A DNA stretch of 64,000 nt from Actinomycetota bacterium (GTDB lineage: Bacteria; Actinomycetota; UBA4738; HRBIN12): assembly GCA_046716145.1 (NCBI GenBank), contig JBKJXU010000097.1, positions 9,676-73,675 on the forward strand. The letters are read 5' to 3'. The notes under the pieces were generated by a model. It worked only from the letters and a program-made list of their open reading frames with translations, ran no database searches and was not told the DNA's origin. Position 1 is the stretch's first letter. Every line of letters starts with the position of its first letter. The position numbers and the translations under genes are program-made. Shown here in pieces: positions 13,360 to 34,235 of this stretch.

Positions 13360-13755
13360 ATGTTCCTCCTACGACGCGTGCTGAAGATCCAGTCCGCCCT
13401 ATGGGCGCTCACGGGACTGGCGCTGGGACTGGTTCCACTTACGGTCCTCGAGGCGTTGGGGCAGTCCTCCGTCGAGGAAACCGCGTGGCTCCGCATGCTC
13501 GGCGTCACGGCCGTCGTCCTCGCACTGCTGATGTGGCTCGTCGCCGGGGCGCTCGATCAGGTGTGGTGGTGGGCGTGGGCCTTCGCCGTCCTGGAAGCAG
13601 GGGTGGCGACCCTCGCGCTCGTGAACGCGACCTTCAGCGTGGACCCGGGCGCGCCGGCGTGGGCGTGGTGGGTCATCGGCGGGGTCTCCGTCGCCCTCGC
13701 AGCCCTGGATCTCGTGGGGCTCGGGCGGACCAGTCAGGAGAAGCCGCAGGTCTAG
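13360..13755 (+). CDS. small integral membrane protein (hypothetical)
   Basis: 131 aa, 4 predicted TM helices, Trp-rich; only plausible coding frame in this gap. Confidence 0.4.
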   Translation: MFLLRRVLKIQSALWALTGLALGLVPLTVLEALGQSSVEETAWLRMLGVTAVVLALLMWLVAGALDQVWWWAWAFAVLEAGVATLALVNATFSVDPGAPAWAWWVIGGVSVALAALDLVGLGRTSQEKPQV

Positions 13756-18764: not shown

Positions 18765-18897
18765 GGCTTGAGGTCGGCGTCGGCCGCTACTTGAGAGTGC
18801 CTGAGGGCGCGCGGGAACGTCAATGGGACGAAGGTCTCGCCACCGGGGGAGCCGAAGGGCCGCCACGGCGATGGTGTCCCGTTGTTAGTTTGCCCGC

Positions 18898-19956
18898 ATG
18901 CTGAGGGACCGGGCGATGCTGGTGGAGGGTGGCATCGGGCACCAGTCCGCACGCGTGACGGTGGCAACGGCTCGGTTGTTGCACGCCGCCGGGGTCCACG
19001 TCGAGGTCCTGAGCTGGAACCCGTTTACGCTCGCCGGATCCACGCGCGCCGTCTCGCGGGTCGTGCGCGTGCCCGACGCGGAGCGCGCCGCCGAGAGCTT
19101 CGCGGATGTGAGCGGGGACCGCCTGGTCCTGCCGACGAGCGATGCGGCCGCGCTCGGGCTCTCGCTCCCTGGGTCGGGCCTGGTGGACAAGCGGGCGTTG
19201 TACGCGTACGCCCGCGAGCGAGGGGTGCCCGTCCCGGCGACGGATGTCTTCCCCGACGCGGAGAGCCTTCGAGACGCCGCCGCGTCTCTCGCGTACCCGG
19301 TGATCCTCAAGCCTGCGATCGGCAAACCGGTGATCCGAGCACGGTCGGCTACCGACGTGGAACCGTTCCTGCGGCGCGTGCAGCCGTCGACCGCGATCCT
19401 GGTGCAGACCGTCTTGCAGGGTCGCGTGCGCGCGGTCGCCGGGGTGGCCCGCGCGGGTGCCCTGGTCGGCGTCGTGCACCAGGTCGCGATCCGGGGCTGG
19501 CCCTCGACGAGCGGCACGACGACAGCCGCCGTGACCTCGGCTCCCGACCTCGCCCTCGAGGCGCACACGGTTGCGCTCGTCTCCGATCACGACGGGATCT
19601 TCCACGCCCAGTTCCTGGGCGGGAACGTGCTCGACCTCAACCTTCGGCCCTACGGCAGTATCGCGTTGGCTGCGGCCGCGGGCGTCAACCTGCCCGCGCT
19701 CTGCGCGGCCCTGGAGGCACCCGGGGCCGACGAGCCGATCAGAGCCCGCTCCGGGGTTCGCTACCGATGGATCGAGGCGGACATCCGGTTGGCGGTGGCG
19801 CGGATCCGCCGATCCCCCGGACGGACACTCTCGATCGCCTGGGAGCATCGGCCTCGATCGGGCACCGCGCACGGGGACGCCTCCACGGTCCGCGACCTCG
19901 GCCCCGCGTTCGGCCGGCTCCGCCTGGGGCGCGCCGTATCCCGAGGGCAGCTGTGA
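18898..19956 (+). CDS. ATP-grasp domain ligase (paralog 1)
   Basis: 352 aa; ATP-grasp core (YPVILKPAIG...), preceding pre-ATP-grasp domain; 4-nt GTGA overlap with downstream glycosyltransferase. Confidence 0.7.
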   Translation: MLRDRAMLVEGGIGHQSARVTVATARLLHAAGVHVEVLSWNPFTLAGSTRAVSRVVRVPDAERAAESFADVSGDRLVLPTSDAAALGLSLPGSGLVDKRALYAYARERGVPVPATDVFPDAESLRDAAASLAYPVILKPAIGKPVIRARSATDVEPFLRRVQPSTAILVQTVLQGRVRAVAGVARAGALVGVVHQVAIRGWPSTSGTTTAAVTSAPDLALEAHTVALVSDHDGIFHAQFLGGNVLDLNLRPYGSIALAAAAGVNLPALCAALEAPGADEPIRARSGVRYRWIEADIRLAVARIRRSPGRTLSIAWEHRPRSGTAHGDASTVRDLGPAFGRLRLGRAVSRGQL

Positions 19957-21071
19957 CCCCGCGCGCCACGCACGGGCGCGACGGCGTGTTGGTGGTCGGC
20001 CAGGGGCCGCCGGCTCGCGGGGGGATCCCTTCCTTCATCACCATGCTCCTCGATGACCCCGTGCTCGCCCACCGCGCCCGGCTCACCGCGCTCAACACCT
20101 CCCGGGCGCCGGCCCGACCGGGAGCAGCGACGCCCGCGAACGCCTGGTCGACCCTCCGCGACCTCGTACGCGTGTTCACCGCTGGGCGACGGGTGCGCAT
20201 CGTCCACCTGCACGTGGCGCCTGCGCCCCTGCTACCGCTGATGCGAGCGTCAGCGCTGGCCATCGCCGGGCGGATCTCGGGCGCGAAGGTGATCGTGCAC
20301 GCGCACAGCGGTCGGATGCACATCGCCGCCGCCTCGAGCCGCACCTACCGGGCCGGTCTCCGCTGGCTCGTTCGCATCGCGCATCGGATCGTGGTCGTGT
20401 CGAGCGACGGCGCCGACGTGTTGCGACGAGCGGGCGGCGAGCCGATCATGCTCCCGAACGCCGTCGACATCGGGCCGTCGGACCCCCCGTCGCGACCCGG
20501 GTCGCGGATCGTGGTCTTCGTGGGCACGGTGTGCGAGCGCAAAGGCCTGGATGACCTGCGGCTGGCCCTCGTCTCGCTCCGCGACGCAGGCGAGGAGGCG
20601 GCCGTGCCCGCGGGGGTCATCATCGTGGGTGACGGCCAGCAAGAGGGTCCGGGAGCATTCGATCGGGTCCGTGCCGCCTACGCGGCGAGCGGGCTGCTCG
20701 ACCTGGTCCGCTTCACCGGGGCGCTTCCTCCCGCAGGCGTCCGCTCCGAGCTGACGCGAGCGAGCGTGTTCTGCCTGCCCTCGCACTGGGAAGGTTCGCC
20801 CATCTCGATGCTCGAGGCGATGGCGGCCGGATGCGCGATCATCGCGACGCGTGTGGGTGAGATCTCATCCGTGCTGGAGGAGGCGGGGATCGTCATCGAA
20901 CCTCGTGACCCGGCCGCGCTCGCGGGAGCGATCGGCGGTCTCATGGCCGAACCCGCACGGAGAGCGGCACTCGGAGCGCATGCCCGGGAGCGCGTGGTGA
21001 GGAACTTCTCGCTCGACACGATGCGGGAGCGGCTGCTCGCGATCTACGCGGGCCTCGGTTACTCCAGGTAG
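19953..21071 (+). CDS. glycosyltransferase family 1 (GT4-like)
   Basis: GTG start overlapping ATP-grasp stop; C-terminal EGSPISMLEAMAAGCAIIAT (EX7E region). The 5' part of track ORF 18882-21071 is an Arg-rich alternate frame of the ATP-grasp gene. Confidence 0.8.
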   Translation: MTPRATHGRDGVLVVGQGPPARGGIPSFITMLLDDPVLAHRARLTALNTSRAPARPGAATPANAWSTLRDLVRVFTAGRRVRIVHLHVAPAPLLPLMRASALAIAGRISGAKVIVHAHSGRMHIAAASSRTYRAGLRWLVRIAHRIVVVSSDGADVLRRAGGEPIMLPNAVDIGPSDPPSRPGSRIVVFVGTVCERKGLDDLRLALVSLRDAGEEAAVPAGVIIVGDGQQEGPGAFDRVRAAYAASGLLDLVRFTGALPPAGVRSELTRASVFCLPSHWEGSPISMLEAMAAGCAIIATRVGEISSVLEEAGIVIEPRDPAALAGAIGGLMAEPARRAALGAHARERVVRNFSLDTMRERLLAIYAGLGYSR

Positions 21072-22696
21072 CCCAGACCTCGCAACGACTCTTCGATCTG
21101 CCGCTCGTCCTCTTCGGTGAAGGGGTAGACCGCGGGGTCGTCGCCCCCGTCGCCGCGCGCTTCGGCACCCGGCGCGACGTTCCGTTCGGCGCCCGTGGCC
21201 GCACGCGACACGATCTCTTCGGCCACGCGGCCGTCGAGCCCGTCGGGGACGCCGAGCCCCGCAACGCGGAACGCCGTCGGCAGGACGTCCACCACCCGCA
21301 GCGATCGCGGGATCGGCCCCGGCACGAAGGACGGACCGGCGCCGATGAACACCCCGTCCTGATGGTGATAACCCCACGGCCGATCGCGATGGTCGGTGAG
21401 CGGGGACGTCGCGGCGAGCGTGTCGGACAGTTCGTATCGCTGATCACGACAGATCGGGAACAGGTGCGGAGCCCGGGACGCGAACGGTCCGACGGCCGCT
21501 TTGTGGCGTGGGATCACGCGATCGACCACGGGGTCGCCGTCGGCCGGGTCGACGAGACCGAGGAGCCGTTCGGTGATCTCCGCGGTGACCTCCTCGGTGC
21601 GCCCGGCGTCGAGCACCCCGTGCGGCAACGCAGGACCGCGCTCGTTCACATGGATCCCCTGTTCGGCCACCTGCGATGCGAACGCCTCGGTGCTGTCCCA
21701 GTCCAGTCCTCGGTTGATGCGGTTCTTCGCCTTCAGCAACAGACCCCGAGGCAACAGGCGGCGTGCCGCCGCTTGGATCGGGCCGGCGACCACCCCGGCG
21801 CGCGTGATCCTGCTCACGGCCGGGAGCCGCAGGTACCCCCACTCGTGCAGCAAGAGGTTGACATTGAGCGTCTTCTCCCACGGCCCCGCCCCGTGATCGG
21901 AGACGATGAGGACATCGCCTTCGGGACCGGCCCACGCGACGAGATCCGCGATCGCGAGGTCGAGCTCGGCGAAGTATGCCCACGCGCGCTCGCGCATCCG
22001 CGGCGCCTCCGGCCGTGCGTACCAGTCCGAGCACTCCACCAGGTACTGGTAGTGCAGGTGCTGCAGGCGGTCGGTCCCTTCGAACACCGCGAAGACCATG
22101 TCGACGTCACGCCGTTCGAGCAGCGCCCCCAGAACCGCCCTGCGCTTGATCTGGATCGCGGTGACCTCGTCGATCGCGGAGGGACGCGTCCAGTCGTTCT
22201 CATACGACACGACCGTGTCGATCGGGTAGGACCCGCCGGTCACCTCGCGGATCACGTCGGCCACCTCCGGGTCGGAGGCGAACCCATCGACATCCGGAGA
22301 GGTCCAACCGGCCGCCAGGCCGCCGGACACGAGGAACCCCCGCACACCGGGAGCGGGTGGGTAGGTCATCGGCACGTTGTAGACGCCGATCGAGACGTCG
22401 CGTGCTTCGGTGAACCGCCAGATCGGGGTCGACGCGATCGTCCCCGCATGCGCGATCTTCGCCGGCTCCTGCGGAGTGGTGGCGAGGAAGCCGTAGACGT
22501 TGTGCCGGCCGGGGTTGACCCCGGTGATCATCGAGACCCAGGCGGGCGGCGTGTACGCAGGGGTCGTCGAGGTCAGCGTGCCGTGTGCGCCGCGGTCTCG
22601 GAGCGCGGCCAGGGCCGGCATCACGCCCGCAGCGAACAACGGGTCGAGCAGCCGGGAAGTCGCGCCGTCGAGCCCGATGATCGCCGTTTTGCCCAC
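21059..22696 (-). CDS. AlkP-superfamily type I phosphodiesterase/nucleotide pyrophosphatase family protein (paralog 2)
   Basis: GTG start at 22696 preceded by GGGAGG SD; VGKTAIIGLDGATS...TPPAWVSMITGVNPGRHNVYGF, SDHG; acidic C-terminal tail ...EEDERQIEESLRGLGYLE. Confidence 0.75.
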   Translation of the reverse strand: MGKTAIIGLDGATSRLLDPLFAAGVMPALAALRDRGAHGTLTSTTPAYTPPAWVSMITGVNPGRHNVYGFLATTPQEPAKIAHAGTIASTPIWRFTEARDVSIGVYNVPMTYPPAPGVRGFLVSGGLAAGWTSPDVDGFASDPEVADVIREVTGGSYPIDTVVSYENDWTRPSAIDEVTAIQIKRRAVLGALLERRDVDMVFAVFEGTDRLQHLHYQYLVECSDWYARPEAPRMRERAWAYFAELDLAIADLVAWAGPEGDVLIVSDHGAGPWEKTLNVNLLLHEWGYLRLPAVSRITRAGVVAGPIQAAARRLLPRGLLLKAKNRINRGLDWDSTEAFASQVAEQGIHVNERGPALPHGVLDAGRTEEVTAEITERLLGLVDPADGDPVVDRVIPRHKAAVGPFASRAPHLFPICRDQRYELSDTLAATSPLTDHRDRPWGYHHQDGVFIGAGPSFVPGPIPRSLRVVDVLPTAFRVAGLGVPDGLDGRVAEEIVSRAATGAERNVAPGAEARGDGGDDPAVYPFTEEDERQIEESLRGLGYLE

Positions 22697-22903
22697 CGTC
22701 GCCTCCCGACGTACGCTCGCGTGCGTCACAGCAGGATACGGGCAGGCAGGCGTGCGCCCACCCGGCCGATGGAGGGGACGAGGAGGGACCGGTCGGCCGA
22801 TGCGTCCGGACCTTTCGACCGGGTACCGTGTCGTCCCCCGAACGGGGGATCGGTCTCGGATCGATGAGTCGCGCGCTCGTGGCACGGTCGGAGGGACCAG
22901 CGC

Positions 22904-23884
22904 ATGATGGACAAGATCCTCGAGATCATCGAACGGCGATGGACGCTCGCGGTGTTGACCGGCGCCCTCATCGGCTCGTCGATCGGCTTGCTCGGAACCA
23001 TCACGGCGCCCGATGTCTACGTCGCTCGCTCGCTCGTCGTCCTCACCAACGCGAGCATCCCGCCCGAAGAGTTCGCCGGGGTAGCTGGGGCGATGTTCCC
23101 GACCGATGCGGTCCTGCGTCCCGTCATCCGCCAGCTCGGGTTGGATCGAACGCCCAGCCAGTTGATCGCGGACGGGTCCGTGTCGTTGGAACCCCAGCCC
23201 GGCGGCCTGGCCGTGAACGTCGTCGCCCGGACGAACGGACCGGACCTCGCCGTCGCTATCGCGAACGCGACGGCAGCCCAACTCGCCGACGTGAGCCAGA
23301 TCAATGGGATCGGTGAGCTCGCCGAGTTCCCCGCGGAGGGCCCAGCCGGGGTCCAGGCCGACTCGCCGCTGCGCGGGATCGCCCTGGGTGCTCTCATCGG
23401 CGCGGTGATCGCGGCGCTCGATGTGGCGATCGTCTTCCTGTTCCGGCGCAGGAGCCTCGGCTCCGACGGGAGGTTCCGGTTCGACGCGATGGTGCGCGCG
23501 AGCGTGACGGCCGCCACCGAGGAGACAACGTCTCCGACGGTGAGCGCCGCGTATCCGCTGGGGGCCCTGCTCGGCATGCTCGGTGAAGAGGCGGGCGGGC
23601 ATGAGGTGGTCGCCGTGGTCCTGGACGGTGGGCGCGACCTGTGGGCCTCGCTCGCGGCAGCCGACGAGCTCAGGCGTCTCGCGGAAGGTCGCCGCTCGGG
23701 CGGCTTCCGCGTGCTCTCCCCCGGCGAGGAGCCATCCGACGAAGACACCGCGGGCCCTGTGCTCGTGATCGCGGCCGACCACACGCCGGCCTCGCGGCTA
23801 CGTGACCTCCGCCGCCGGCTCCGCGACAGCAACGGTGACGCGACCACGGCCCTGCTCTTGGTCCGCGCATTCGACGGAGGCTGA
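22904..23884 (+). CDS. Wzz-like polysaccharide chain-length determinant / co-polymerase family protein
   Basis: N-terminal TM (LAVLTGALIGSSIGLLGTI), periplasmic region, second TM (LGALIGAVIAALDVAIVFLF), cytoplasmic C-terminal domain. Confidence 0.5.
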   Translation: MMDKILEIIERRWTLAVLTGALIGSSIGLLGTITAPDVYVARSLVVLTNASIPPEEFAGVAGAMFPTDAVLRPVIRQLGLDRTPSQLIADGSVSLEPQPGGLAVNVVARTNGPDLAVAIANATAAQLADVSQINGIGELAEFPAEGPAGVQADSPLRGIALGALIGAVIAALDVAIVFLFRRRSLGSDGRFRFDAMVRASVTAATEETTSPTVSAAYPLGALLGMLGEEAGGHEVVAVVLDGGRDLWASLAAADELRRLAEGRRSGGFRVLSPGEEPSDEDTAGPVLVIAADHTPASRLRDLRRRLRDSNGDATTALLLVRAFDGG

Positions 23885-23888
23885 AGCC

Positions 23889-24785
23889 GTGCGGGATGCG
23901 AGCGCCGATGACGGCCTGCTCGTCGACTGGCTCGCCCACTACGCGGCACTCATGCTCGTCATCATCGTCGTGATCACGGCGGGGGCTACGGCCTGGGCGG
24001 CGTTCGTCCTGCCGAGCCGCGAGATGTGGACCATCGTCGTGGACTCGACCCAAGACGTGCCGGCACGCGAGCTCGGCGTGGTCGGCGAGGCCCTCTTCCA
24101 GGCGGAGGACACCTCGACCGAGGCGATGGCGGCGCTCGGCTTGACCGGTGAGCCCGAGCAGCTCTATCGCTTCGTCCAGCTCCGAGCCGTCCCCGAGTCA
24201 CGTCTCCTGATCGTCGTCGCACGGACCGATGACCTCTACACCGCGTCGAGCGCCACCGACGCGATGGCACAGGCGCTCGTGCACGCGTTCGAGCGGGCCG
24301 GCTATACGGGGATGCGGGTCTTGGGGGCGCCGCAGCCGGCTCCCGTCGCCTCGGGCCTCTCGGTCGGTGTCGTGGCGCTCGCGGCCGTGGTGATGGGGAT
24401 CGTCCTGGCGCTCGGGGTCGCGATCGTCGCCTACCGATCGCGCCGGCCGGTCCTCACGATGCAACGTGCCGCCGCGCTCGTCGATCCGCTCACCGTCGCG
24501 TCGATCCCGGGAAGCGCCCGAGCGCTGGGCTCGCTCCGGCGGCGCCCGCCGAGGATCTCGAGGGGGTCGCTCCGGCTCGCAGCGCCGTTCGGTGACGACA
24601 CGAGGCTGCAGGCCCCCGGTTTCTCCGAGCGGGATCGGCGAAAGCTCGCGCGCTCGCTCGGGGTACCTGCGCGCAGCGAGGGTCCCCGCGCCGTCATCGC
24701 GTGCGACGCTGCCACGCGCGAGCGCGATCTCCGCGCCGTGACCAGCACGAACGCGTCCCCGCTCGAGCTGCTATGGATCGCGTGA
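23889..24785 (+). CDS. second Wzz-like two-TM membrane protein
   Basis: GTG 5 nt after previous stop; TM (LMLVIIVVITAGATAWAAFVL), periplasmic segment, TM (VALAAVVMGIVLALGVAIVAY), Arg-rich C-terminus. Confidence 0.45.
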   Translation: MRDASADDGLLVDWLAHYAALMLVIIVVITAGATAWAAFVLPSREMWTIVVDSTQDVPARELGVVGEALFQAEDTSTEAMAALGLTGEPEQLYRFVQLRAVPESRLLIVVARTDDLYTASSATDAMAQALVHAFERAGYTGMRVLGAPQPAPVASGLSVGVVALAAVVMGIVLALGVAIVAYRSRRPVLTMQRAAALVDPLTVASIPGSARALGSLRRRPPRISRGSLRLAAPFGDDTRLQAPGFSERDRRKLARSLGVPARSEGPRAVIACDAATRERDLRAVTSTNASPLELLWIA

Positions 24786-24938
24786 GCGGCACGCCCCTTC
24801 ACCGGCCTGGTCACCGCGGACCAGATCCTGGCAGGATGCGCGGGATCCCCCCTCACGTTTCGCCCCTTCCCCGCCGATGTTCTTCCATGAGTGGGGACCG
24901 TTCCTGGCCACGCTCAGCCGGAGGGACGGAAGGGGTTC

Positions 24939-25916
24939 GTGCGTGTGATCGAGGCTCGCCGATCGAGGCGATGGATGGGACTGGGAGTGAGCGCCGCGGT
25001 GCTCGCGGTCTCGATGGCGCCCGCTGCGCACGCGGTCTACAGACCGTTCGTGGATCGGAGCTACTGGAACCGATCGCTGCCGAACGACGCCCCACGCCAC
25101 CCCGACTCCGCACGAATCATCGACTTCCTGCGAGTCGACAACGACACGAACTACATCCGGCTGGCGGGAGCGACGCCGACGGGCGAGTGGGGCATGCCGA
25201 TCTACTGGCCCAGGCGCGAAGCACCCGTGTACGACGTCGGCCGCAACTGCAGCGTCGAGCAACCGCGCGAGTTCAACAACGTCCGCATCCCTCGGGGAGC
25301 GCGCCCAGATCCGACGAACGACGCCGCCATGACGATCATCGACAGGAACCGCGGGGTGGCCTACGGCCTCCATCACGCCCGCTACGACCGGAAGAACGAC
25401 CGCTGGACATCCTGCGGCGGGACCGTCTACTACCTCGCATCGAACGGCTTGCACGGCGACCTTCGCGCATCGGACGAGAAGCGCAATCGCGGTCACCGGG
25501 GCGTCCCGCCGACCATCTCGGCCGTGCGCTTCGACGAGGTGCGCGCGGGCTCGATCGACCACATCCTCAAGATCGCGGTGAACAGGACCGCGTGCCGGCA
25601 CGTCTTCCCGATGATCGACAGCGAGTGCGGTACGACGAACCGCTACGCGCCGCCGGAGGGCATACGGATCAGGATCAGGCCGGGGGTCAACCTCGAGAGA
25701 CTGCATCTGTCGCCGGCCGCGCTCGTCATCGCCCGGGCCCTGAAGCGGTACGGCGCGATCATCGGGGATCAATCCGGGGGTCCGATCGTCCTCAAGCTGG
25801 AGAACACGGTCGCGGAGGGTCGCGGGTTCCTGTGGAAGGGCATCCTCACACCGACATCGCTGGAGCGGATCCCGCTCCGCTATCTCGAGGTCTTGGCGCC
25901 GGGCTACCGGCCGTAG
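24939..25916 (+). CDS. secreted hypothetical protein (unknown function, in glycan cluster)
   Basis: Signal peptide RRSRRWMGLGVSAAVLAVSMAPAAHA; no recognised motif; start (GTG 24939 or Met 24975) uncertain. Confidence 0.5.
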   Translation: MRVIEARRSRRWMGLGVSAAVLAVSMAPAAHAVYRPFVDRSYWNRSLPNDAPRHPDSARIIDFLRVDNDTNYIRLAGATPTGEWGMPIYWPRREAPVYDVGRNCSVEQPREFNNVRIPRGARPDPTNDAAMTIIDRNRGVAYGLHHARYDRKNDRWTSCGGTVYYLASNGLHGDLRASDEKRNRGHRGVPPTISAVRFDEVRAGSIDHILKIAVNRTACRHVFPMIDSECGTTNRYAPPEGIRIRIRPGVNLERLHLSPAALVIARALKRYGAIIGDQSGGPIVLKLENTVAEGRGFLWKGILTPTSLERIPLRYLEVLAPGYRP

Positions 25917-25938
25917 CACCGCACCGAGGGAGGTCCGC

Positions 25939-27300
25939 GTGGACCTCCTGACGCTGGCGATCGGCGGCCTCGCGGCGATCTGCGCGTGGCTCTGGGCGGT
26001 GCGCGACCCGATGCGGACGATCGTGCCGGCCTACGCCGCACTCATCCCCTTGGGTGGGGTGCTCGCGCTGCGGATCCCGCTGCCGGCGCCGTTCAACACA
26101 CTCTCCTCGGCCGCGGGTGCACTCGCGATCGTCGCGCTGGCCGTGCACCTCGTGCGTTCCGGGCGTGGCCGTGTGCCCTCCCTCCCTGTGGGTGGCTGGC
26201 TCCTGTTCGTGGCGTGGGGCGCCATGACGGTGCTGTGGTCCGTCGACCCGACGGACGTCGTTCGGGAGATGACCCTCGCCGTGCCGCTGCTGGCCATCGT
26301 GGTGCTCGTCGCGATGGAGCCGGCGGATGATGGCGACCTCCGACGGATCGCATGGGCCACGCTGGCGTCGGGCGCAGCGATCGGCGCGTACGGGATGGCG
26401 CTCATCGTGGTCGGCGGCTCGCTCCCGGAGCACGGGCTGTCGGCGCGGTTCTCGCTCAGCGCCGACACGAACCCGAACCAACTGGCAACCAGTCTGTTGT
26501 TGCCCTTCTTCCTGGGCTTGGGCCTGACCCTGGATCGTCGCGACCCCGGTGCGCAGCGTTGGCGGGCCTACGCGGCGCCGGGCGGCACCATCCTGACGGG
26601 TGCGGCCATCGCGCTGTCCGGCTCGCGTGGCGGCGCGCTCGCTACGGCATTGGGCTCCGCCGTGTTCGTGGCGCTCGCCTGGCGCTGGTCGCCGTGGCGG
26701 CGCGACGCGGTCCGCCGCCTCGTCGCGGCAGGCATGGCCGGTGCCGCCGCGCTCGTTCTCACGGGCGTGCTCGCTACTTCGCTAGCGCCCGACAGCCGCA
26801 TCGCCTCGCTCCTTGCTGGGGACGCGGTCGGCCGGCTGGGAGCTGTGGAGTCGTCTTCGGGCCGGGCAGAGATCTGGACGGCCGGGGCCTTGGCGTGCAC
26901 GGCATACTGCGGCGTCGGATCCGGTCTCGGCACGTTCCCCGACGTGTACAACGACGTGTTCGCGTTCTCCAACGTCACCCGCAACGTCGGTGCCAGCCGC
27001 CCCGGACACAACCTCTACCTGGAGATCGCGGTCGAGACCGGACTACTCGGCATCGTGCTGTTCTGGATGGCGATCGGGAGCGAGTTCCGCGCGATCGCCA
27101 GACGCCGTGCCTCATGGCTCGCCCCGGCGCTGGCCGCAGCCATCGTTGCGATCCTGGTGGCTGACATCTTCGAGGGATTCCTGTGGTTCAAGCATGCGTG
27201 GCTGCCCTTCACCGTGATCCGCGTCTTCGAGTCCGCGGCGGATCGGAGCGCATCGGCCGAGGCCCGCCGGGAAGCGGCGTTCCCGCGGGTCATCTCGTGA
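25939..27300 (+). CDS. O-antigen ligase/polymerase family membrane protein (Wzy/WaaL-like)
   Basis: 453 aa, about 10-12 TM helices, LSGSRGG motif in a periplasmic loop typical of the O-antigen ligase/Wzy_C family. Confidence 0.7.
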   Translation: MDLLTLAIGGLAAICAWLWAVRDPMRTIVPAYAALIPLGGVLALRIPLPAPFNTLSSAAGALAIVALAVHLVRSGRGRVPSLPVGGWLLFVAWGAMTVLWSVDPTDVVREMTLAVPLLAIVVLVAMEPADDGDLRRIAWATLASGAAIGAYGMALIVVGGSLPEHGLSARFSLSADTNPNQLATSLLLPFFLGLGLTLDRRDPGAQRWRAYAAPGGTILTGAAIALSGSRGGALATALGSAVFVALAWRWSPWRRDAVRRLVAAGMAGAAALVLTGVLATSLAPDSRIASLLAGDAVGRLGAVESSSGRAEIWTAGALACTAYCGVGSGLGTFPDVYNDVFAFSNVTRNVGASRPGHNLYLEIAVETGLLGIVLFWMAIGSEFRAIARRRASWLAPALAAAIVAILVADIFEGFLWFKHAWLPFTVIRVFESAADRSASAEARREAAFPRVIS

Positions 27301-28223
27301 ACCTGCCGAACCTCCTGATCGCCGGGGTCCCGAAGGCAGCGACCGGGTCGCTGTTCGCCTACCTGGGACAACACCCGGCCGTGTGTGCGTCGAGCCGCAA
27401 GGAGATCAAGTACTTCTCCCCCGACGCCGCTGATGGCCGGTCGCGTCCGCTCGAGTGGTACGAGCGCTTCTTCGCCCATCGCGCCGGTGAACCGTTCGCG
27501 CTCGAGGCGACGCCGTCCTACTGCTACATGGGACCACGTGTGATCGACGCCATCGGGTCGAGCCTGGAGCGTCCCCGGGTGATCTGGATCCTTCGTGATC
27601 CGGTGGATCGCCTCTGGTCGGCCTACACGTTCCAACGGAGCCTCGGGCACCTGCCCGCGGGTATCGACACGTTCGAGGTGTACATCGATGCATGCATCGC
27701 CGAACGGACGGCCCATCCCCGCGTGCTGGACCAAGGATCGTTCAAAGGACTGTCGATAGGGATGTACGGCGAGCACCTACCGGCCTGGGACGAGGCCTTC
27801 GGCGAGGATCTGCGCGTGCTCTTCTTCGATGATCTCGCGAGGGACCCCGTCGAGGTGGTTCGGGGCGTGTGTGGGTGGCTGGGCATCGACGGCTCCGTGG
27901 TCGACGGGTTCGTGTGGGAAGCACACAACCCGACGGTGCACCCCCGCAGCGTGACACTCGCGCGAGGTGCAGCGACCGCCCGCGGTTGGAGCAAGCGCGT
28001 GCTTCGGCGGGCGCCGGGCCTGCGCAAACGGCTTCGCGATACCTACGTCCGGGCGAACGCGGGCATCCTGCGGGAAAGGCCGCGACCCGAGACGACCGAG
28101 CGGCTCCGGACGCTGTACGCCGGGTCCAACGCTGTCGTGATGAACGTGGCGCGGCGGCGCGGCATGACGCCGCTCCCGGACTGGCTCGAGCCCCCTCAGC
28201 CCTCCGGCACGAACCCCGCCTGA
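27297..28223 (+). CDS. PAPS-dependent sulfotransferase (Stf0-like, paralog 1)
   Basis: GTG overlapping previous stop (GTGA); 5'-PSB LIAGVPKAATGSL and 3'-PB ILRDPVDRLWSAY motifs. Confidence 0.75.
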   Translation: MNLPNLLIAGVPKAATGSLFAYLGQHPAVCASSRKEIKYFSPDAADGRSRPLEWYERFFAHRAGEPFALEATPSYCYMGPRVIDAIGSSLERPRVIWILRDPVDRLWSAYTFQRSLGHLPAGIDTFEVYIDACIAERTAHPRVLDQGSFKGLSIGMYGEHLPAWDEAFGEDLRVLFFDDLARDPVEVVRGVCGWLGIDGSVVDGFVWEAHNPTVHPRSVTLARGAATARGWSKRVLRRAPGLRKRLRDTYVRANAGILRERPRPETTERLRTLYAGSNAVVMNVARRRGMTPLPDWLEPPQPSGTNPA

Positions 28224-29740
28224 TCGGGGTCCCGGCCGCTCGCGGAGTCCTCACCACGCACGCGCAGCGCCCGCAGCGCCGATCTGTCCTCCTCGGACAG
28301 ACCCAGTCCCCAGAGGGCGACGACGTACGCCACAGCGACGACCGCCGCCGCGACGATGGCAGCGCTCGCGCCGTCGACCGGGACGATCGCCACGACGAGC
28401 AGCGAGCCAGCCGCGGCGACGCTCGCGGCGAGTGCAGGTTTCCAGACGTCGCGCGAGAACGGGAGTATCCGCTCGCGTGCCCAGATCTGCAGCAGGGGGA
28501 CCACGTTGTTCGAGGCGGTTCCCGCCGCCTTCGCGATGGCAGCGCCCGCGACGCCGTGCCGTGGGATGAGGACGAACGCGAGCCCGATCTCGAGCGCGAT
28601 CACGACGAGGTAATCGGCGAGCGCCGTCGCCGAGCGCCCCATCATGATCAGCGTGACGGTCACCGGGCCCGTCCCGAAGTTGAACAGCATCCCGAGGGCG
28701 AGGATCCGAAGCGCCGTCGTCCCTTCGGTGAACCCCGGCCCGAATACGGACAACAGCTCATGCGGGAAGGCGAGCATCAGGACCAGCAGGGGAGCACCGA
28801 GGGTGAACGTCCACCTGGTCGCGCTGCGATAGAGCGCGGCGAACTCCGTGCGCTTGCCCTGCAGGAAAAGGTCGGAGCCGATCGATGTGTAGACCTGGTT
28901 CAGCGAGTTCACGACCGATGTGAGGGCCCCGGCGATGCGGTTCGCGGCGGCGTACACGGCGGTCGCGATGACCGCCGCGATGGAACCCAAGAGCACCGGC
29001 ATGATCTGGCCTCGGCTCTGGCCGGCCAAGCGGGAGCCCCAGGCGGGCAATGCGAACCGTATGAGCGACCACGGTTCGACCGGTGCCACATCGCCCGTGA
29101 GCGGGACGCGACGCCACAAGACCGCGAGGGACACGGCGAGCAGAACGCACTCCGCCAGCAGGAGTCCGGCGTAGGCGGCCACCAACGACGCCGAGGCCAT
29201 CGCAAGCGCGCCGACCACGAGGAGCCGCACGGTCGGCTGCAGGACGTTGCGGATCAACGCCGCGTCGCGCATCTCCTTGAACGCCTGGGTGGCATACACG
29301 AGCACTTGACGCATACCGACGACCGGCGCCATCACGGCGGTCAGGCGCAACAGGGGCTCCAGATCCGCGTCGTGGAACACGGAGCGCGCGACGGGCCCCG
29401 CTGCCAGGAACAAGCCGGCACCGAGCAACGCGAGTCCGACCCCGGCGAGCGCCAGCGCCACGTGGATCGTTGCCCGTAGACGTGGGATATCGCCGATGCC
29501 GTGCTGGTAGGAGCCCTGACGCATCACGATCCAGTCGGCGCCGAGTTGCCCCACGATCGACAGGAGTTGCCCCAAGGAGAAGGCGATCGCCCACAGGCCG
29601 AAGGCGAGCTTGCCGTAGGTGCGCGCGATCACCACGGCCAGGACGAACGACCCGGCGAAGCTCACGACACCGCTGGACACGAGCAACGCCGAACCGCGCG
29701 CCATGCGGCCCGTGTGCGCGTGCACGACGGGGTCGTTCAT
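28196..29740 (-). CDS. wzx: Wzx-type polysaccharide flippase (MOP/PST family)
   Basis: 514 aa, 12-14 TM helices, polysaccharide biosynthesis protein family pattern; ATGA overlap with upstream sulfotransferase. Confidence 0.8.
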   Translation of the reverse strand: MNDPVVHAHTGRMARGSALLVSSGVVSFAGSFVLAVVIARTYGKLAFGLWAIAFSLGQLLSIVGQLGADWIVMRQGSYQHGIGDIPRLRATIHVALALAGVGLALLGAGLFLAAGPVARSVFHDADLEPLLRLTAVMAPVVGMRQVLVYATQAFKEMRDAALIRNVLQPTVRLLVVGALAMASASLVAAYAGLLLAECVLLAVSLAVLWRRVPLTGDVAPVEPWSLIRFALPAWGSRLAGQSRGQIMPVLLGSIAAVIATAVYAAANRIAGALTSVVNSLNQVYTSIGSDLFLQGKRTEFAALYRSATRWTFTLGAPLLVLMLAFPHELLSVFGPGFTEGTTALRILALGMLFNFGTGPVTVTLIMMGRSATALADYLVVIALEIGLAFVLIPRHGVAGAAIAKAAGTASNNVVPLLQIWARERILPFSRDVWKPALAASVAAAGSLLVVAIVPVDGASAAIVAAAVVAVAYVVALWGLGLSEEDRSALRALRVRGEDSASGRDPDQAGFVPEG

Positions 29741-30660
29741 GCGTACCCGAGCCGCGCCAACAGCGGCGCGCAGACCTCACCGACGGCACCCTGCACGTCC
29801 CCGGCCCAGGCGCGGTGCCGGCCGGTGTTCGGCTCGATCGAGGACCGCCGGGCGACACCGGGGTCTTCGAGGCCGGCGTGGTGAGGCGCGTCCGCGTACG
29901 CCATCACCGACGGATCCCACGCCTCGCCCAGGAACACGAAGAGGGGCGCGAGCGTGGCCGCCGGATCGGCCGTGAGGTCCTCGTAGCGGATCCGATAGCA
30001 CGCCTCGGGATGAGCGGCCTCGAAAGCCAGGATCTTCTCGGTCTGGGCGACCCAGAACCGTGCAGCACCGAGGGGCACGTCACCACCCGCCTCCCGCACC
30101 GACGCTCGTATGGCGGGGTAGAACCGCTCCGAGAGCGAATACGCGACATCGCGACCGTCGCGGACGATCGTTACGAAGCGTGCGCCGGGCCCGAACAGCG
30201 TCCAGAGGTCCTCGAGGAGGTCGACGTGATGCGGTGTCTTATCCGCCCACCGCGGCTTCCCCTGCGCGTCGGCGTAGGACTCGTAGAAGGACGCGATGAA
30301 CCGTGCGAGGGCCTGCGTGACGGCTTCGGCGCCGTACCCCATCCCGTCGAACCCCTTCCGCGCGCGAGGGTCGTGCAGCAGGTGCACGAGAGGACCGACG
30401 AACGCCGTCTCGGGGGGGCACGCGATCTTCGGATGCGAGTCGACGATACGGCGGAGCAGCGACGTGCCGCTCCTTTGGCAGCCAACCAGGAAGATGGCGT
30501 CCGCTCGGTCGGCATCACCGACCGAAGGCGCAGCCAGGGCTGGCGCACGGGGGTCGCGGGGCGCGGTGAGGCGGCCGACGGATCGACGCAGGCGACGTCG
30601 AAGGGTCACGGGCGGCTCACTCGATGTACCCGAGGCCGCGCAGGTGCTGCGCGATCTCAT
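29737..30660 (-). CDS. PAPS-dependent sulfotransferase (Stf0-like, paralog 2)
   Basis: 5'-PSB IFLVGCQRSGTSLL, 3'-PB IVRDGRDVAYS; start is either ATG 30660 or GTG 30609 (8 nt after the upstream AlkP stop). Confidence 0.75.
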   Translation of the reverse strand: MRSRSTCAASGTSSEPPVTLRRRLRRSVGRLTAPRDPRAPALAAPSVGDADRADAIFLVGCQRSGTSLLRRIVDSHPKIACPPETAFVGPLVHLLHDPRARKGFDGMGYGAEAVTQALARFIASFYESYADAQGKPRWADKTPHHVDLLEDLWTLFGPGARFVTIVRDGRDVAYSLSERFYPAIRASVREAGGDVPLGAARFWVAQTEKILAFEAAHPEACYRIRYEDLTADPAATLAPLFVFLGEAWDPSVMAYADAPHHAGLEDPGVARRSSIEPNTGRHRAWAGDVQGAVGEVCAPLLARLGYA

Positions 30661-32161
30661 CCTCTTCGGAGCGACCGAGGCCATCCCCCGGCATGGGCGC
30701 AGCGGCATCGGCCAGGTCTCCCCCGGTCCCTGCGATCGCCGGGATGGGCCGCCCGTCGATGTCGTCGGCGCGGAGCCCCTGGAGGCTGAGCAGCGTGGGC
30801 GCCAGATCCACGATCGACGGGGTGCCGAGATCCGCGGCGGCGGCCTCCGAACACACGATGATCCCCTCGCGACGATGGTCGCCCGACGGCCAGGTCGACG
30901 GCTGGGTGACGTGGTCGATGTTCCCCAGCCCCCAGCCGGGAGCCGGGCGAGCGAGGAGGTCGGGGGCGAGGTCGAGGTGGGGACCCGCCGGGAGCTCCTC
31001 GCGGAAGGTCACCTGGGCGACCGGTGCCTCACCGCTCTGCGGATCGCGGAACGCCAGCAGCGCTCCCGCCACCTCCCGCCGCACCCGGTCGTAGTCACCC
31101 GGGGCGACCGTTCCGTGGATCTCGCGCCCCTTGAGGTTGATCGCGATCGCCCCTCCGGACCCCGCCGAGTACGCAGCCGTGCGGCCCCAGTCGAGCGCAG
31201 CGGGAGCGCGGACCCGCTGCTTCAGCCGGTAGCCGGCTCGCGTCTTGCCGAGGGCGCGTGTGGGCGCCCATCGCCTCAGGGACCGCCCGAGCCGCGCGCG
31301 CGAGTCCGACGAGGCGAGCCCGAGCGCCTCCAACAACTTGCCGGTGCCGGCCAGGTGCGCGATGGGCCGGAAGCCGTGATCGGACATCACGATGGTGAGA
31401 GCGTCGGGCCCCGCCGCACGGCGCAGACGCGCGAGCGACTCATCGAGCAGTGCATACATCGACCGGAGCGACTCCCCCACCTGCGTCTGTCGAAGTCCCG
31501 CGTGCGCAGGGTGCGTCGGTAGGAGATAGGCGCCCATGGCGTGCTGCACACGATCGGGGGCCACGAACACGCAGACGGCGACATCCCATCGCCCCTCCAA
31601 CAAGATCTCGAAGGAGGCGCTTCGCTGCTCGACGAGGCGAAGGGCGTCACCGACCAAGCTCTCGGGCTCGTCGCGGTGGTGCATCCACTCGAGCCCGTTG
31701 ATCGGGAACGGGGCGCGCGCATCGAGTTCCTCGGCGAACGCCGAAGGGGTCACGAAGGGCGCACCCCGAGGGATCGCCACACCACCGATCATCCGTCCGT
31801 TGACCTCCCAAGGAGGGAACGTGACCGGGATGTTGGCGGCCCGCACCTCGAGGCCCGCCGCAGAGAGGCGATCGAGGAAGGTGGCTTTCCTGATGGACGT
31901 GGATGACACCGGGATACGCCGATCGGCGTCGGTCGGGTCGCGCTGCACGAAGTCCCACACACCGTGGCCGGCTGGGTGCGAACCGGTCAGGAACGATGAC
32001 CACGCGGCCCACGAGTGAGACGGAACGGTGGACAGCAGCGTCCCGCGGCCCCCTTCGCGGATGAGTGCTTCGAGGTTGGGCAGGAGACCGCGGGAAAGGA
32101 GATCGTCCACGATCTCCCAGTCGGCTCCATCCCACCCGACCACCAAGACCCGTCGTCTCAC
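30617..32161 (-). CDS. AlkP-superfamily type I phosphodiesterase/nucleotide pyrophosphatase family protein (paralog 3)
   Basis: GTG 32161 overlapping ATP-grasp stop (GTGA); VLVVGWDGADW...TVPSHSWAAWSSFLTGSHPAGHGVWDF, SDHG; C-terminal ...SEEDEIAQHLRGLGYIE as in paralog 2. Confidence 0.75.
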   Translation of the reverse strand: MRRRVLVVGWDGADWEIVDDLLSRGLLPNLEALIREGGRGTLLSTVPSHSWAAWSSFLTGSHPAGHGVWDFVQRDPTDADRRIPVSSTSIRKATFLDRLSAAGLEVRAANIPVTFPPWEVNGRMIGGVAIPRGAPFVTPSAFAEELDARAPFPINGLEWMHHRDEPESLVGDALRLVEQRSASFEILLEGRWDVAVCVFVAPDRVQHAMGAYLLPTHPAHAGLRQTQVGESLRSMYALLDESLARLRRAAGPDALTIVMSDHGFRPIAHLAGTGKLLEALGLASSDSRARLGRSLRRWAPTRALGKTRAGYRLKQRVRAPAALDWGRTAAYSAGSGGAIAINLKGREIHGTVAPGDYDRVRREVAGALLAFRDPQSGEAPVAQVTFREELPAGPHLDLAPDLLARPAPGWGLGNIDHVTQPSTWPSGDHRREGIIVCSEAAAADLGTPSIVDLAPTLLSLQGLRADDIDGRPIPAIAGTGGDLADAAAPMPGDGLGRSEEDEIAQHLRGLGYIE

Positions 32162-33348
32162 GTGACCCCCTCGGACCCTCGCCCGGTGCCCGAGCGTCCC
32201 CGGAGCGACGCCACGCCACGCGCGGCGACGTGGCCGGCCGCCCGCAACGCGGGCCGGAGATCGTCCATCGCCAACAGTGCACCTTCCTCGACGCCTCGGA
32301 ACGACGCGAGCCACGATCTGGCTGTCAGCCAGCCAGCCGTACGGTACGGCAGCATGCTGCTCGCAACATGGCTTTCCAGGATCCAGCCGCGTCCGTCCGG
32401 CACCACCTCATCCGGGATCGCGCCTCCGGTCAGATCCAGATACGCGCACCGCGCCACGTCGAGACCGCCAACGGCGACGAAGGCGCGGAACGTCCCACCG
32501 ATCCTCGGGTTCACGTCGAGCAGGACGTACCGGCCGGTCCGTTCGTCGAACCGGACGTCGACATCCACGGGCCCCACGTAGCCGAGGTCGCCGAGGAAAC
32601 CGGTGACGAGGCGCGCGATGTCGTCGTTGCGTTCGGTCACGGCGTGCGTCGCCGTCCCCGCATAGGCGGGATGCTGCGCGATCTTGCGTCCCGTCGCCCA
32701 GAACCGGCACGTGCTCGACGCATCGAAGTACGCATCGAAGATCCAGTTCACGCGCCGGGGTGATCCCGGCAGATGCTCCTGCAGGAGGACGCCGTCCTCA
32801 CCGAGCATCCGCACGGCTTCCTCACGTGTCGCCGCGATGACCACGCTCCGACGCCCACGAGCCCGCGGACCGGCAGGAGCCTTCACCACCAGCGGCAGCC
32901 CCACGAGATCGCAGAAGGCGTCGAGTTCTTCGGGCGTACGCACCCGACGGATCCGTAGGGTCGCGACGCCTGCGTCTTCCGCCATGGCAGCCAGGGTCTC
33001 CTTGTCTATCGATCGCTCGACAAGACCTACGGGCAACTCGGGGAAGACGAACCCTTCGCGGAGCGCATCGGCGTGGGTCTGGACGAACATCGCCGCCTCA
33101 TCATCGGTCGGCAGCAGCACCGAGCGGCCGTGGCGTGCCGCCAGGGCGGTGAGCGCCCCGACCCCGCCCGGCCCGGGGGTGAAACGCTCGAAGGCGTGGA
33201 CGTAACGAGAGCGCCCCGCGATCCCGCTGCGGGGATCGGGGCTGGCGAGGATGACCGGGACGCCCCAGCGCCCGAGGGAACGGATCGCACCGAGGACCCC
33301 GTGTTGTGGGAACGGTTCGCTCGCTGTGCGCAGGACCGTGACCGGCAT
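32158..33348 (-). CDS. ATP-grasp domain ligase (paralog 2)
   Basis: About 396 aa; ATP-grasp core (LVVKAPAG..., LLQEHLPG...), C-terminal extension. Confidence 0.7.
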   Translation of the reverse strand: MPVTVLRTASEPFPQHGVLGAIRSLGRWGVPVILASPDPRSGIAGRSRYVHAFERFTPGPGGVGALTALAARHGRSVLLPTDDEAAMFVQTHADALREGFVFPELPVGLVERSIDKETLAAMAEDAGVATLRIRRVRTPEELDAFCDLVGLPLVVKAPAGPRARGRRSVVIAATREEAVRMLGEDGVLLQEHLPGSPRRVNWIFDAYFDASSTCRFWATGRKIAQHPAYAGTATHAVTERNDDIARLVTGFLGDLGYVGPVDVDVRFDERTGRYVLLDVNPRIGGTFRAFVAVGGLDVARCAYLDLTGGAIPDEVVPDGRGWILESHVASSMLPYRTAGWLTARSWLASFRGVEEGALLAMDDLRPALRAAGHVAARGVASLRGRSGTGRGSEGVT

Positions 33349-33446
33349 GCCGGTGCGCGAACTCAGACGGGGTGCCATGGGGGTCGTATCATCGCAGCAC
33401 GCCGTTGCGCCACCGCCGGCACCCGTGAAAGGACCTGCGATCGACC

Positions 33447-34235
33447 ATGGCTGTGCTGACGTATCACGCCGTCGACCCGGAGTGGTCTGCGCCGTTGTCC
33501 GTTGGTCCGGATCAGTTCAGGAGACATCTCGATTGGATCGGCAACAACCGTCGTGTCGTTGCCCTGGAAGAGACCTTGGCCCGGAACGGCCATCTGGCAC
33601 ATGACGAGGTGGCGATCACGTTCGACGACGGCTTCACGTCCGTCGCCCAGCACGCACTCCCGGCGCTTCGCGACCGCGGGATGCGCGCCACGATCTTCCT
33701 CGTCGGCAAGATGCTCGACGGGAGCGGCGGAACCATCGACTGGGTTGACCGGCCGCCGGGGCACCCTCTCGCGGTGCTGGACCCCGCCCTGATCCGCGAG
33801 TTGCGCGATGAGGGCGTGGAGTTCGGGAGCCATTCCTACGCGCACCGCGATCTCACGACGCTCGGCTTCGCGGCGTGCGTCGAGGACCTTCACAGGGGCC
33901 GCGATGTCCTGCAGGACACCCTCGGGAAGGAGGTCACCACGCTCGCCTACCCCTTCGGGCGCCACGACGCCGACGTTCGACGGGCCGCCGCCGAGGCGGG
34001 ATTCACGTGGGCGTTCGCGATGGCCATGCCACCTCGTGCCCACGTCTCGATGGCCATACCGCGGGTGGGCATCTACGCGAACGACGACCTTGCGAGGCTC
34101 CGGATGAAGACCCACTCCTGGTACGGCCGGGTGCGGTCAAGCGCCATCTACCCGGCGTTGCATCGCATCAGGGCGCGCATCCGCGGTGATGCCGCCGTGG
34201 ATGGACACGATGGGACGTCCGGGAGTCCACCCTAA
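33447..34235 (+). CDS. polysaccharide deacetylase (CE4/NodB homology domain)
   Basis: ITFDDGF (TFDDG motif), HSYAH; 262 aa. Confidence 0.8.
   Translation: MAVLTYHAVDPEWSAPLSVGPDQFRRHLDWIGNNRRVVALEETLARNGHLAHDEVAITFDDGFTSVAQHALPALRDRGMRATIFLVGKMLDGSGGTIDWVDRPPGHPLAVLDPALIRELRDEGVEFGSHSYAHRDLTTLGFAACVEDLHRGRDVLQDTLGKEVTTLAYPFGRHDADVRRAAAEAGFTWAFAMAMPPRAHVSMAIPRVGIYANDDLARLRMKTHSWYGRVRSSAIYPALHRIRARIRGDAAVDGHDGTSGSPP

Follow-up and report, generated by a model that had tools for sequence, protein, structure and literature searches.

A conserved Wzx/Wzy island with sulfotransferases, ATP-grasp ligases and NPP-like phosphoesterases in an uncultured actinobacterial lineage

Introduction

The synechan xss cluster of Synechocystis reportedly directs the synthesis of a sulfated exopolysaccharide in a Wzx/Wzy-dependent manner, and to our knowledge nearly all documented sulfated polysaccharides of bacteria come from cyanobacteria. 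Here we characterize a 64,000-nucleotide stretch (hereafter referred to as the window) from an Actinomycetota bacterium of the HRBIN12 lineage (assembly GCA_046716145.1, contig JBKJXU010000097.1, positions 9,676 to 73,675 of the forward strand), known as a metagenome-assembled genome (MAG). The window carries between groES and tsaD a Wzx/Wzy-dependent polysaccharide island of approximately 24 kb (17.5-41.7 kb). Within the island are two ATP-grasp ligases (ATPg1 and ATPg2) and two proteins of the AlkP/nucleotide pyrophosphatase-phosphodiesterase (NPP) family (AlkP1 and AlkP2), which an initial annotation made from the letters of 18898-33348 had taken to be a recurrent two-gene module. We consider it likely that this conserved island serves a sulfated polysaccharide, and that its ATP-grasp and AlkP genes are independent accessory tailoring functions and not a dedicated pair, with AlkP tied to sulfation.

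Outside cyanobacteria, wps-1 of Actinoplanes missouriensis is a recently predicted sulfated-polysaccharide Wzx/Wzy cluster (PMC13390465). What xss and wps-1 share with the island is the presence in one locus of Wzx, Wzy, glycosyltransferases (GTs) and at least two cytoplasmic sulfotransferases of different families that are of the 3'-phosphoadenosine 5'-phosphosulfate (PAPS) type. When searched, the text of the wps-1 paper showed no mention of an ATP-grasp, phosphatase, phosphodiesterase or NPP-like gene (PMC13390465). Beyond the shared elements, the island is predicted to encode a pair of NPP-like enzymes, a pair of ATP-grasp ligases, a deacetylase and a FemAB-like transferase. The kind of locus is already known, and the NPP-like and ATP-grasp content is its variant part. 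Since the island is conserved in many uncultured Actinomycetota MAGs, it broadens the picture of bacterial sulfated polysaccharides.

A precedent for the combination of an ATP-grasp enzyme with a phosphohydrolase is found in Campylobacter jejuni HS:2, where the ATP-grasp domain of Cj1438 joins glucuronic acid to serinol-phosphate or ethanolamine-phosphate, after which the phosphate is cleaved off by the phosphatase Cj1435 (PMC11800397, PMC11800379). In both loci a polysaccharide-linked ATP-grasp enzyme is tied to a glycosyltransferase (Cj1438 is fused to a GT2, while here a GT4 is adjacent) and a phosphohydrolase is nearby. The differences are several: the C-terminal domain Cj1438C is TupA-like, whereas the window proteins have no TupA-like match (the Cj1438 sequence itself was not part of the comparison); Cj1435 is a HAD phosphatase, whereas the island has AlkP/NPP enzymes and no HAD phosphatase; the aminotransferase and decarboxylase genes for donor synthesis have no counterpart in the island; and the HS:2 capsule is exported via an ABC-transporter pathway, whereas the island is of the Wzx/Wzy type.

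Results and Discussion

Gene content of the island

In the window, which has a G+C content of approximately 70%, real genes were picked by third-position GC (GC3) and then by Pfam and NCBIfam. Both flanks of the island are core genes, with sortase, guaA, an IMPDH-like gene and groEL/groES on the left and tsaD, nnr, glmS, glmM, rpoA, map and secY on the right. An initiating glycosylphosphotransferase, Wzx, Wzy, GTs and sulfotransferase domains are all present (PF13469 is matched at 113.4 and 79.8 bits), and synteny extends to related MAGs (L001, L004, L005-L015 and L020). The genes that make up the predicted pathway are as follows.

18898-19956, plus strand: ATPg1, carboxylate-amine ligase of the ATP-grasp type, from a small subfamily; stop codon overlapping the start of GT4 in GTGA
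19953-21071, plus strand: GT4 glycosyltransferase (PF13692 and PF00534), conserved partner of ATPg1
21059-22696, minus strand: AlkP1, predicted cytoplasmic NPP-like metallophosphoesterase with an ...LRGLGYLE tail (PF01663, 104 bits); orthologues in L005, L014 and L015
25939-27300, plus strand: Wzy-type polymerase (PF04932, 57.9 bits, cut-off 31.7)
27270-28223, plus strand: ST1, sulfotransferase of the Sulfotransfer_1 family (PF00685, 49.6 bits, cut-off 22)
28196-29740, minus strand: Wzx flippase (PF01943, 66.3 bits); its start overlaps the ST2 stop (ATGA, 29740-29737)
29737-30609, minus strand: ST2, sulfotransferase of the Sulfotransfer_3 family (PF13469, 113.4 bits), ending ...LLARLGYA
30617-32161, minus strand: AlkP2, predicted cytoplasmic NPP-like metallophosphoesterase with an ...HLRGLGYIE tail (PF01663, 129.5 bits)
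32158-33378, minus strand: ATPg2, carboxylate-amine ligase of the ATP-grasp type, from a large subfamily (PF02655, 30.6 bits)
33447-34235, plus strand: polysaccharide deacetylase (PF01522, 99.1 bits), divergent from the ATPg2-AlkP2 operon
34305-35690, plus strand: initiating polyprenyl-phosphate glycosylphosphotransferase (TIGR03025, 346.7 bits, cut-off 295.55; PF02397)
35710-36723, plus strand: GT2 glycosyltransferase (PF00535)
36696-37682, minus strand: ST3, sulfotransferase (Pfam)
37634-38782, minus strand: FemAB-like Acetyltransf_6 protein (Pfam)

The start of ATPg2 is probably at 33378, giving 406 aa, as in the identical database protein P0143, and that of ST2 is most likely the GTG at 30609, 8 nt past the AlkP2 stop, rather than 30708. 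The reported fusion of ATPg2 to AlkP2 by a GTGA stop/start overlap (32161-32158) is present in the sequence, and the operon does continue through ST2 to Wzx. ATPg1 has the same kind of overlap with GT4 (GTGA, 19953-19956), and AlkP1 is convergent to this pair.

Neighborhoods of AlkP2

To follow the AlkP genes beyond the window, their alignment was scanned against reference genomes, giving 75 loci with flanks of up to 10 kb per side: 16 Actinomycetota loci with AlkP2 orthologues, mostly in syntenic islands (L005-L020), and 59 other AlkP loci, of which about 35 are from other phyla. Neighboring open reading frames (ORFs) were called with a log-odds gene caller, which leaves some mis-called ORFs that simply lack a Pfam match, and were searched with the island proteins of the window and with iterated profiles.

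In these loci the steady partner of AlkP2 in this lineage is the sulfotransferase, not an ATP-grasp ligase. Sulfotransferases occur in 13 of the 16 actinobacterial loci, as compared to 4 of the other 59, and in most of the 13 ST2 is the gene immediately after or next to AlkP2. Its position is directly after AlkP2 in L001/L015, L003, L004/L006, L005, L007 and L008, and beside it in L009, L010, L013 and L020. In 11 of the 16 loci an ATP-grasp gene of the ATPg1 or ATPg2 type is found, at varying positions, no more than 10 kb from an AlkP2-type gene; a search with iterated profiles found none in the 59. Fisher tests of the 16 against the 59 loci give p ~1e-9 for ATP-grasp and for sulfotransferase alike, values that describe orthologous islands and so do not count independent events.

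The arrangement with ATPg2 immediately ahead of AlkP2 is limited to the window and L005, a relative at 97% identity; in other islands ATPg2 adjoins GT2, a Fem-like gene or AlkP1. Divergent adjacent ATP-grasp/AlkP pairs are seen in L014 and L019. No ATP-grasp gene precedes AlkP2 in L001, L002, L004 or L007. L008 has, flanked by the deacetylase and AlkP2, an ORF of 180 aa (L008:9442-9981) that matches ATPg2 at 101 bits, apparently what is left of an ATP-grasp gene that this island has lost. ATPg1 adjoins GT4 in every island that bears it (L009, L010, L015 and L020). Adjacency of an ATP-grasp and a PF01663 gene was confined to one syntenic clade and did not recur across independent lineages, so that the recurrent module of the initial annotation is not supported; the two gene types mostly distribute separately, which is the very outcome that had been named as speaking against it.

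Neighborhoods of the ATP-grasp relatives

It is also important to consider the same question from the side of the ligases, for which eight relatives were examined, four of ATPg1 (approximately 36-40% identity) and four of ATPg2 (36-42% identity). Of the four ATPg1 relatives, three come from Wzx/Wzy loci that also encode GT4, a deacetylase, a glycosylphosphotransferase and GT2; one of these loci, L080, has a UDP-glucose dehydrogenase as well. The ATPg1-GT4 pairing recurs beyond the islands, with the two genes adjacent in L080 and L085 and in the same locus in L081, and neither PF01663 nor a sulfotransferase is found within 8 kb of any of the four. Directly after the ATPg1 relative, three of the four loci have a conserved protein of approximately 425 aa without a Pfam family (L080:9152-10444, L084:1911-3188 and L085:9083-10354, with mutual E-values of ~1e-90 to 1e-100); the window has GT4 in this slot.

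The ATPg2 relatives have a different setting. For three of the four, the genes next door are comA and comB, which encode phosphosulfolactate synthase and phosphosulfolactate phosphatase (L082:6470-9248, L086:8001-10661 and L087:6460-9287, at 39-42% identity, from Gaiellaceae, Dormibacteraeota and a metagenome contig), with a methyltransferase also adjacent in two of these three (L082 and L086). This direct adjacency suggests a ligase using sulfolactate or a related acid. The fourth relative is in an unrelated Streptomyces context, and no PF01663 gene is found within 8 kb of any of the four. The window has no homologue of ComA, ComB or the ~425-aa protein; the idea that AlkP2 replaces ComB was rejected, as ComA/ComB homologues are absent from the window.

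With these neighborhoods in hand we can weigh the proposal of a dedicated ATP-grasp and AlkP module, in which the ligase would use a phosphorylated amine or acid to amidate the carboxylate of a sugar and AlkP would then strip the phosphate, possibly freeing a hydroxyl for sulfation. The ATPg2-AlkP2 overlap in one operon with ST2 and Wzx, the presence of ATP-grasp genes in 11 of 16 related islands (abutting AlkP in L005, L014 and L019, with the remnant in L008) and the HS:2 precedent of Cj1438 and Cj1435 (PMC11800397, PMC11800379) all speak for it. We nevertheless regard it as unlikely: AlkP2 stands without an upstream ATP-grasp gene in the four islands named above, the 59 other AlkP loci have no ATP-grasp gene of these types, none of the eight ATP-grasp relatives has a PF01663 neighbor, and ATPg1 is coupled to GT4 with AlkP1 convergent. 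The island, furthermore, has no gene for phosphorylated-amine synthesis and no UDP-sugar dehydrogenase, and neither ATP-grasp protein matches the TupA-like Pfam family assigned to Cj1438C.

The ATP-grasp ligases

The two ligases had been called paralogous, and while both are ATP-grasp proteins, they are only loosely related (28% identity, E=0.017) and belong to different subfamilies. ATPg1 has 22 detectable homologues; ATPg2 has 115, with source names of 'carboxylate--amine ligase' or 'D-aspartate ligase', many of them fused to a methyltransferase. In a Pfam scan of both proteins at E<=0.01 the only families matched were PF15632, PF02655 and PF02786. ATPg2 clears the cut-off of PF02655 (30.6 vs. 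23.2 bits) and ATPg1 is under that of PF15632 (25.7 vs. 29.1 bits). The ATP-grasp fold, with its ATP-binding Lys and D/E-x-N Mg motif, is present: ATPg2 keeps the canonical set (K126, K166, Q200, D278, N290 and R292 are invariant) and in ATPg1 residues K98, K138, D246, N248 and R250 are invariant, with a nearly invariant Q238 in place of the first acidic Mg ligand found in other ATP-grasp enzymes. Fold and ATP/Mg-binding motifs are those of PurK/PurT, PylC, BacD and BL00235, although identity to solved ATP-grasp structures is 10-18% and no curated family is reached.

Such ligases are expected to form an acyl-phosphate that is then attacked by an amine, and ATPg1 and ATPg2 probably create amide linkages on the repeat unit. 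As the amine partner, a deacetylated amino sugar is plausible in view of the recurring ATPg1-GT4-deacetylase neighborhood. Part of the decoration chemistry first proposed, a polysaccharide with amide and sulfate groups, is reasonable, while its other part, amidation of a uronic acid, is unsupported as a specific role because Pfam scans found no UDP-sugar dehydrogenase in the island; we keep it as one option, given the dehydrogenase near the ATPg1 relative L080. A literature search on ATP-grasp with uronic acid, amide and O-antigen returned nothing.

Active site, fold and tail of the AlkP family

AlkP1 and AlkP2 are clear paralogs, as initially annotated, their full-length identity being 28% (E=4e-41), and both pass the PF01663 cut-off of 23 bits, as does a third protein of the window, AlkP3 (136.4 bits). 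The two-metal ligands D11, D203, H207, D261, H262 and H429 are invariant across 60 sequences. The residue that follows "PSH/PAY", S in AlkP2 and T in AlkP1 and AlkP3, shares its alignment column with the Thr nucleophile of PhnA and Xanthomonas NPP. The NPP-type core is recovered in three dimensions, and the closest structures are the phosphodiesterases ENPP4, ENPP6, ENPP7 and Xac NPP. Approximately 335 of 514 residues align with solved NPP/PhnA structures (Xac NPP 7mw8, ENPP4 4lr2, PhnA 1ei6) at 17-20% identity. The window proteins differ from these by a family-specific insertion of approximately 170 residues, by the HLRxLGYIE tail and by a predicted cytoplasmic location, since the protein opens directly on the first core strand without a signal peptide and has no membrane anchor. 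Their context is also different, as they lie among glycan biosynthesis genes, whereas NPP/PhnA proteins belong to nucleotide or phosphonate catabolism. Taken together, sequence and models present AlkP1 and AlkP2 as active-looking cytoplasmic NPP-type phosphoesterases with intact active sites.

The AlkP proteins are not PhnA, since they score 30 bits against the cut-off of 407 of the PhnA equivalog TIGR02335, and in NCBIfam neither AlkP1 and AlkP2 nor ATPg1 and ATPg2 reach any family cut-off. Phosphonate chemistry for the island was considered and rejected: the PhnA likeness is weak, the DAO-type protein reaches 233 bits against a cut-off of 632 for TIGR03329, all far below the cut-offs, and no PEP-mutase-type gene is seen within the island.

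The intact sites also bear on whether the repeated genes might be decaying duplicates or pseudo-enzymes without a role in the product. ATPg1 is under its Pfam cut-off and has Gln at the first acidic Mg ligand position, and an ATPg2 remnant exists in L008, yet the catalytic columns of AlkP and of both ATP-grasp families are invariant across dozens of homologues, the frames are full length with coding-type GC3, both structure models are confident (predicted local distance difference test, pLDDT, 90-91), and the near-invariance of Q238 makes it a trait of the ATPg1 family. Decay is therefore very improbable, and the check on catalytic residues that could have undone the initial annotation came out in its favor.

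The C-terminal tail, reported as unusual to the two island copies, is indeed present in both, as LRGLGYLE in AlkP1 and LRGLGYIE in AlkP2. It is not specific to the island, however, and instead is the hallmark of a large uncharacterised family, since ...HLRxLGYIE is nearly invariant across the family and tail-bearing members are found in Chloroflexota, Deltaproteobacteria, Acidobacteriota, Planctomycetota and others. At E<=1e-3 the family comprises 14,875 cluster representatives, a number that falls to 2,097 at E<=1e-30; most are 540-560 aa long, with the match reaching their last residues. Literature searches returned nothing on the tail-bearing family, or on PF01663 together with sulfotransferase; the island offers a genomic foothold for this very large family (the 2,097 representatives) without assigned function.

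The AlkP3-APS kinase pair

AlkP3 lies outside the region of the ATP-grasp and AlkP genes, left of groEL, next to a kinase for adenosine 5'-phosphosulfate (APS):

11187-11819, minus strand: APS kinase (PF01583, 192.2 bits), with a 1-nt overlap with the AlkP3 end
11819-13228, minus strand: AlkP3, tail-less PF01663 protein (136.4 bits)

In all 23 AlkP3-type loci scanned (Actinomycetota; among L050-L078) the APS kinase is the immediate neighbor. AlkP3-type proteins are without the LGYIE tail, and the pairs are usually near groEL/IMPDH. This pairing is a second, independent link between the AlkP enzyme family and sulfation. AlkP3 could be a partner of APS kinase that handles 3'-phosphoadenosine 5'-phosphate (PAP) or PAPS or, speculatively, could supply APS itself by NPP-type chemistry. 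Neither the window nor the immediate surroundings of the AlkP3-APS kinase pairs contain a gene for ATP sulfurylase. The partnerships with sulfotransferase and APS kinase point AlkP biochemistry toward PAP, PAPS and APS and away from an ATP-grasp module, and they are, together with the shared C-terminal endings described below, the most useful leads from this locus.

Proposed pathway and possible roles of AlkP1 and AlkP2

Gene content, synteny, the intact sites and folds and the pattern of co-occurrence are observed; the order of steps, and the substrates of both ligases and of the AlkP enzymes, we infer as follows. The polyprenyl-phosphate glycosylphosphotransferase would begin the repeat unit, which GT2 and GT4 would lengthen. 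The unit would then be tailored on the cytoplasmic side, with the deacetylase taking off an N-acetyl group, the two unrelated ATP-grasp carboxylate-amine ligases and the FemAB-like transferase making amide bonds, and the three PAPS-dependent sulfotransferases adding O-sulfate, before Wzx flips the tailored unit and Wzy polymerises it. Judged by its genes, the product is probably sulfated and amide-decorated. ATPg1 would work with GT4, its translationally coupled partner, and ATPg2 would represent a recent, lineage-specific insertion ahead of AlkP2. As a best guess, AlkP1 and AlkP2 would hydrolyse a phosphoester tied to sulfation. This would be either the PAP/PAPS nucleotide that arises as by-product or a phosphate carried by the repeat unit in its lipid-linked form. 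Clearing of PAP/PAPS-type nucleotides is favored by the AlkP2-ST2 and AlkP3-APS kinase pairs; action on a phosphoester of a glycan intermediate is favored by the distribution of the family in other phyla.

That distribution was characterized in the approximately 35 tail-bearing loci outside Actinomycetota, in which the Pfam families of 101 neighbors include GT2, Wzx, GT4, deacetylase, sulfatase, methyltransferase and ABC-2; neither ATP-grasp nor sulfotransferase is among the 25 most frequent families of these neighbors. In L024-L027, from Chloroflexota, four or five tail-bearing AlkP paralogs stand in tandem within 20 kb.

Several observations weigh against the reading we favor. Outside Actinomycetota the tail-bearing AlkP genes are in glycan loci almost without sulfotransferases (1 of ~35) and form tandem arrays of up to five paralogs, a pattern which fits glycan-directed tailoring better than a housekeeping role in clearing PAP. 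The 16 actinobacterial loci are orthologous, and the association of AlkP with sulfotransferase could therefore come from shared ancestry and not from functional coupling. ATP-grasp genes, for their part, are enriched in the islands (11 of 16), and given the translational coupling in this genome there may be a local functional link between ATPg2 and AlkP2.

The first of these points leads to a possible alternative, to which we give tentative weight, that AlkP1 and AlkP2 are glycan-directed tailoring enzymes which put on or take off a substituent held by a phosphodiester, acting on the lipid-linked unit or a nucleotide sugar, the link to sulfotransferases being incidental. Across phyla the genes have no sulfotransferases for neighbors and keep company with genes of the GT2, GT4, Wzx, deacetylase, ABC-2, methyltransferase and sulfatase families, tandem arrays of as many as five paralogs resemble position-specific tailoring enzymes, the closest structures (ENPP4, ENPP6, ENPP7 and Xac NPP) are phosphodiesterases, and the ~170-residue insertion could bind glycan or lipid. 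The enzymes have, however, neither membrane anchor nor signal peptide, no CDP-alcohol-type genes for donor synthesis are seen nearby, and the tight juxtaposition of AlkP2 and ST2 in most islands and of AlkP3 and APS kinase in 23 of 23 loci argue for the role linked to sulfation.

Shared C-terminal LGY endings

C-termini of the form '...LxxLGY' are common to AlkP1 and AlkP2, ST2 (11 of 12 orthologues), ST3, GT4 and the secreted unkC family; the sites are at 29737-29760, around 21059-21071 and at 30617-30640 in the window, and in L005-L020. Among non-AlkP genes such endings occur in 19 of 266 in the actinobacterial islands vs. 10 of 744 in other loci. In other phyla, 630-aa proteins of sulfatase size next to AlkP end in 'RLKALGYIK' (L033:12906-14795 and L049:9897-11810), while 'RLRALGYV' and 'LEELGYLTGS' are the C-termini of two APS kinases (a further site is L050:12189-12710). 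The ending may represent a shared docking peptide, though a single docking explanation cannot cover all cases, because the secreted unkC family is included.

A bolder extension of these observations, which strikes us as improbable, would make the tail-bearing AlkP proteins a new cytoplasmic class coupled to glycan sulfation that docks on the assembly machinery via ...LxxLGY(I/L)E. Joined by the AlkP3-APS kinase pair, they would make up a sulfonucleotide toolkit complete in itself, serving PAP/PAPS turnover or, most radically, an NPP-type route to APS. With the two ATP-grasp ligases, one from a subfamily otherwise linked to sulfolactate, they would yield an amide- and sulfo-decorated polysaccharide of a chemistry undescribed in bacteria.

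Other genes of the island and its surroundings

The remaining genes of the island are the following.

17541-18866, minus strand: unknown secreted protein of 441 aa with a signal-peptide-like segment, divergent from ATPg1; first gene of the island
22904-23884, 23802-24785 and 24891-25916, plus strand: three conserved unknowns, the first two membrane proteins and the third with a signal-peptide-like N-terminus
38855-40477, minus strand: DAO-type FAD oxidoreductase (Pfam and NCBIfam)
40696-41721, minus strand: NAD-dependent sugar epimerase/dehydratase (Pfam); right-hand end of the island, before tsaD

The ORF at 17541-18866 has no homologue across the 75 related loci and no family match. The three unknowns at 22904-25916 have no match in Pfam or NCBIfam, and their homologues are syntenic in most related islands.

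The best match of the oxidoreductase is a putative aminophosphonate oxidoreductase, below threshold. To the left of the island, the gene at 13752-14828 on the minus strand encodes an amino-acid dehydrogenase with a likewise sub-threshold best match to the tryptophan dehydrogenase ScyB. These two enzymes may supply or alter the amine or acid substituent, as a homologue of the dehydrogenase sits within the island in L008.

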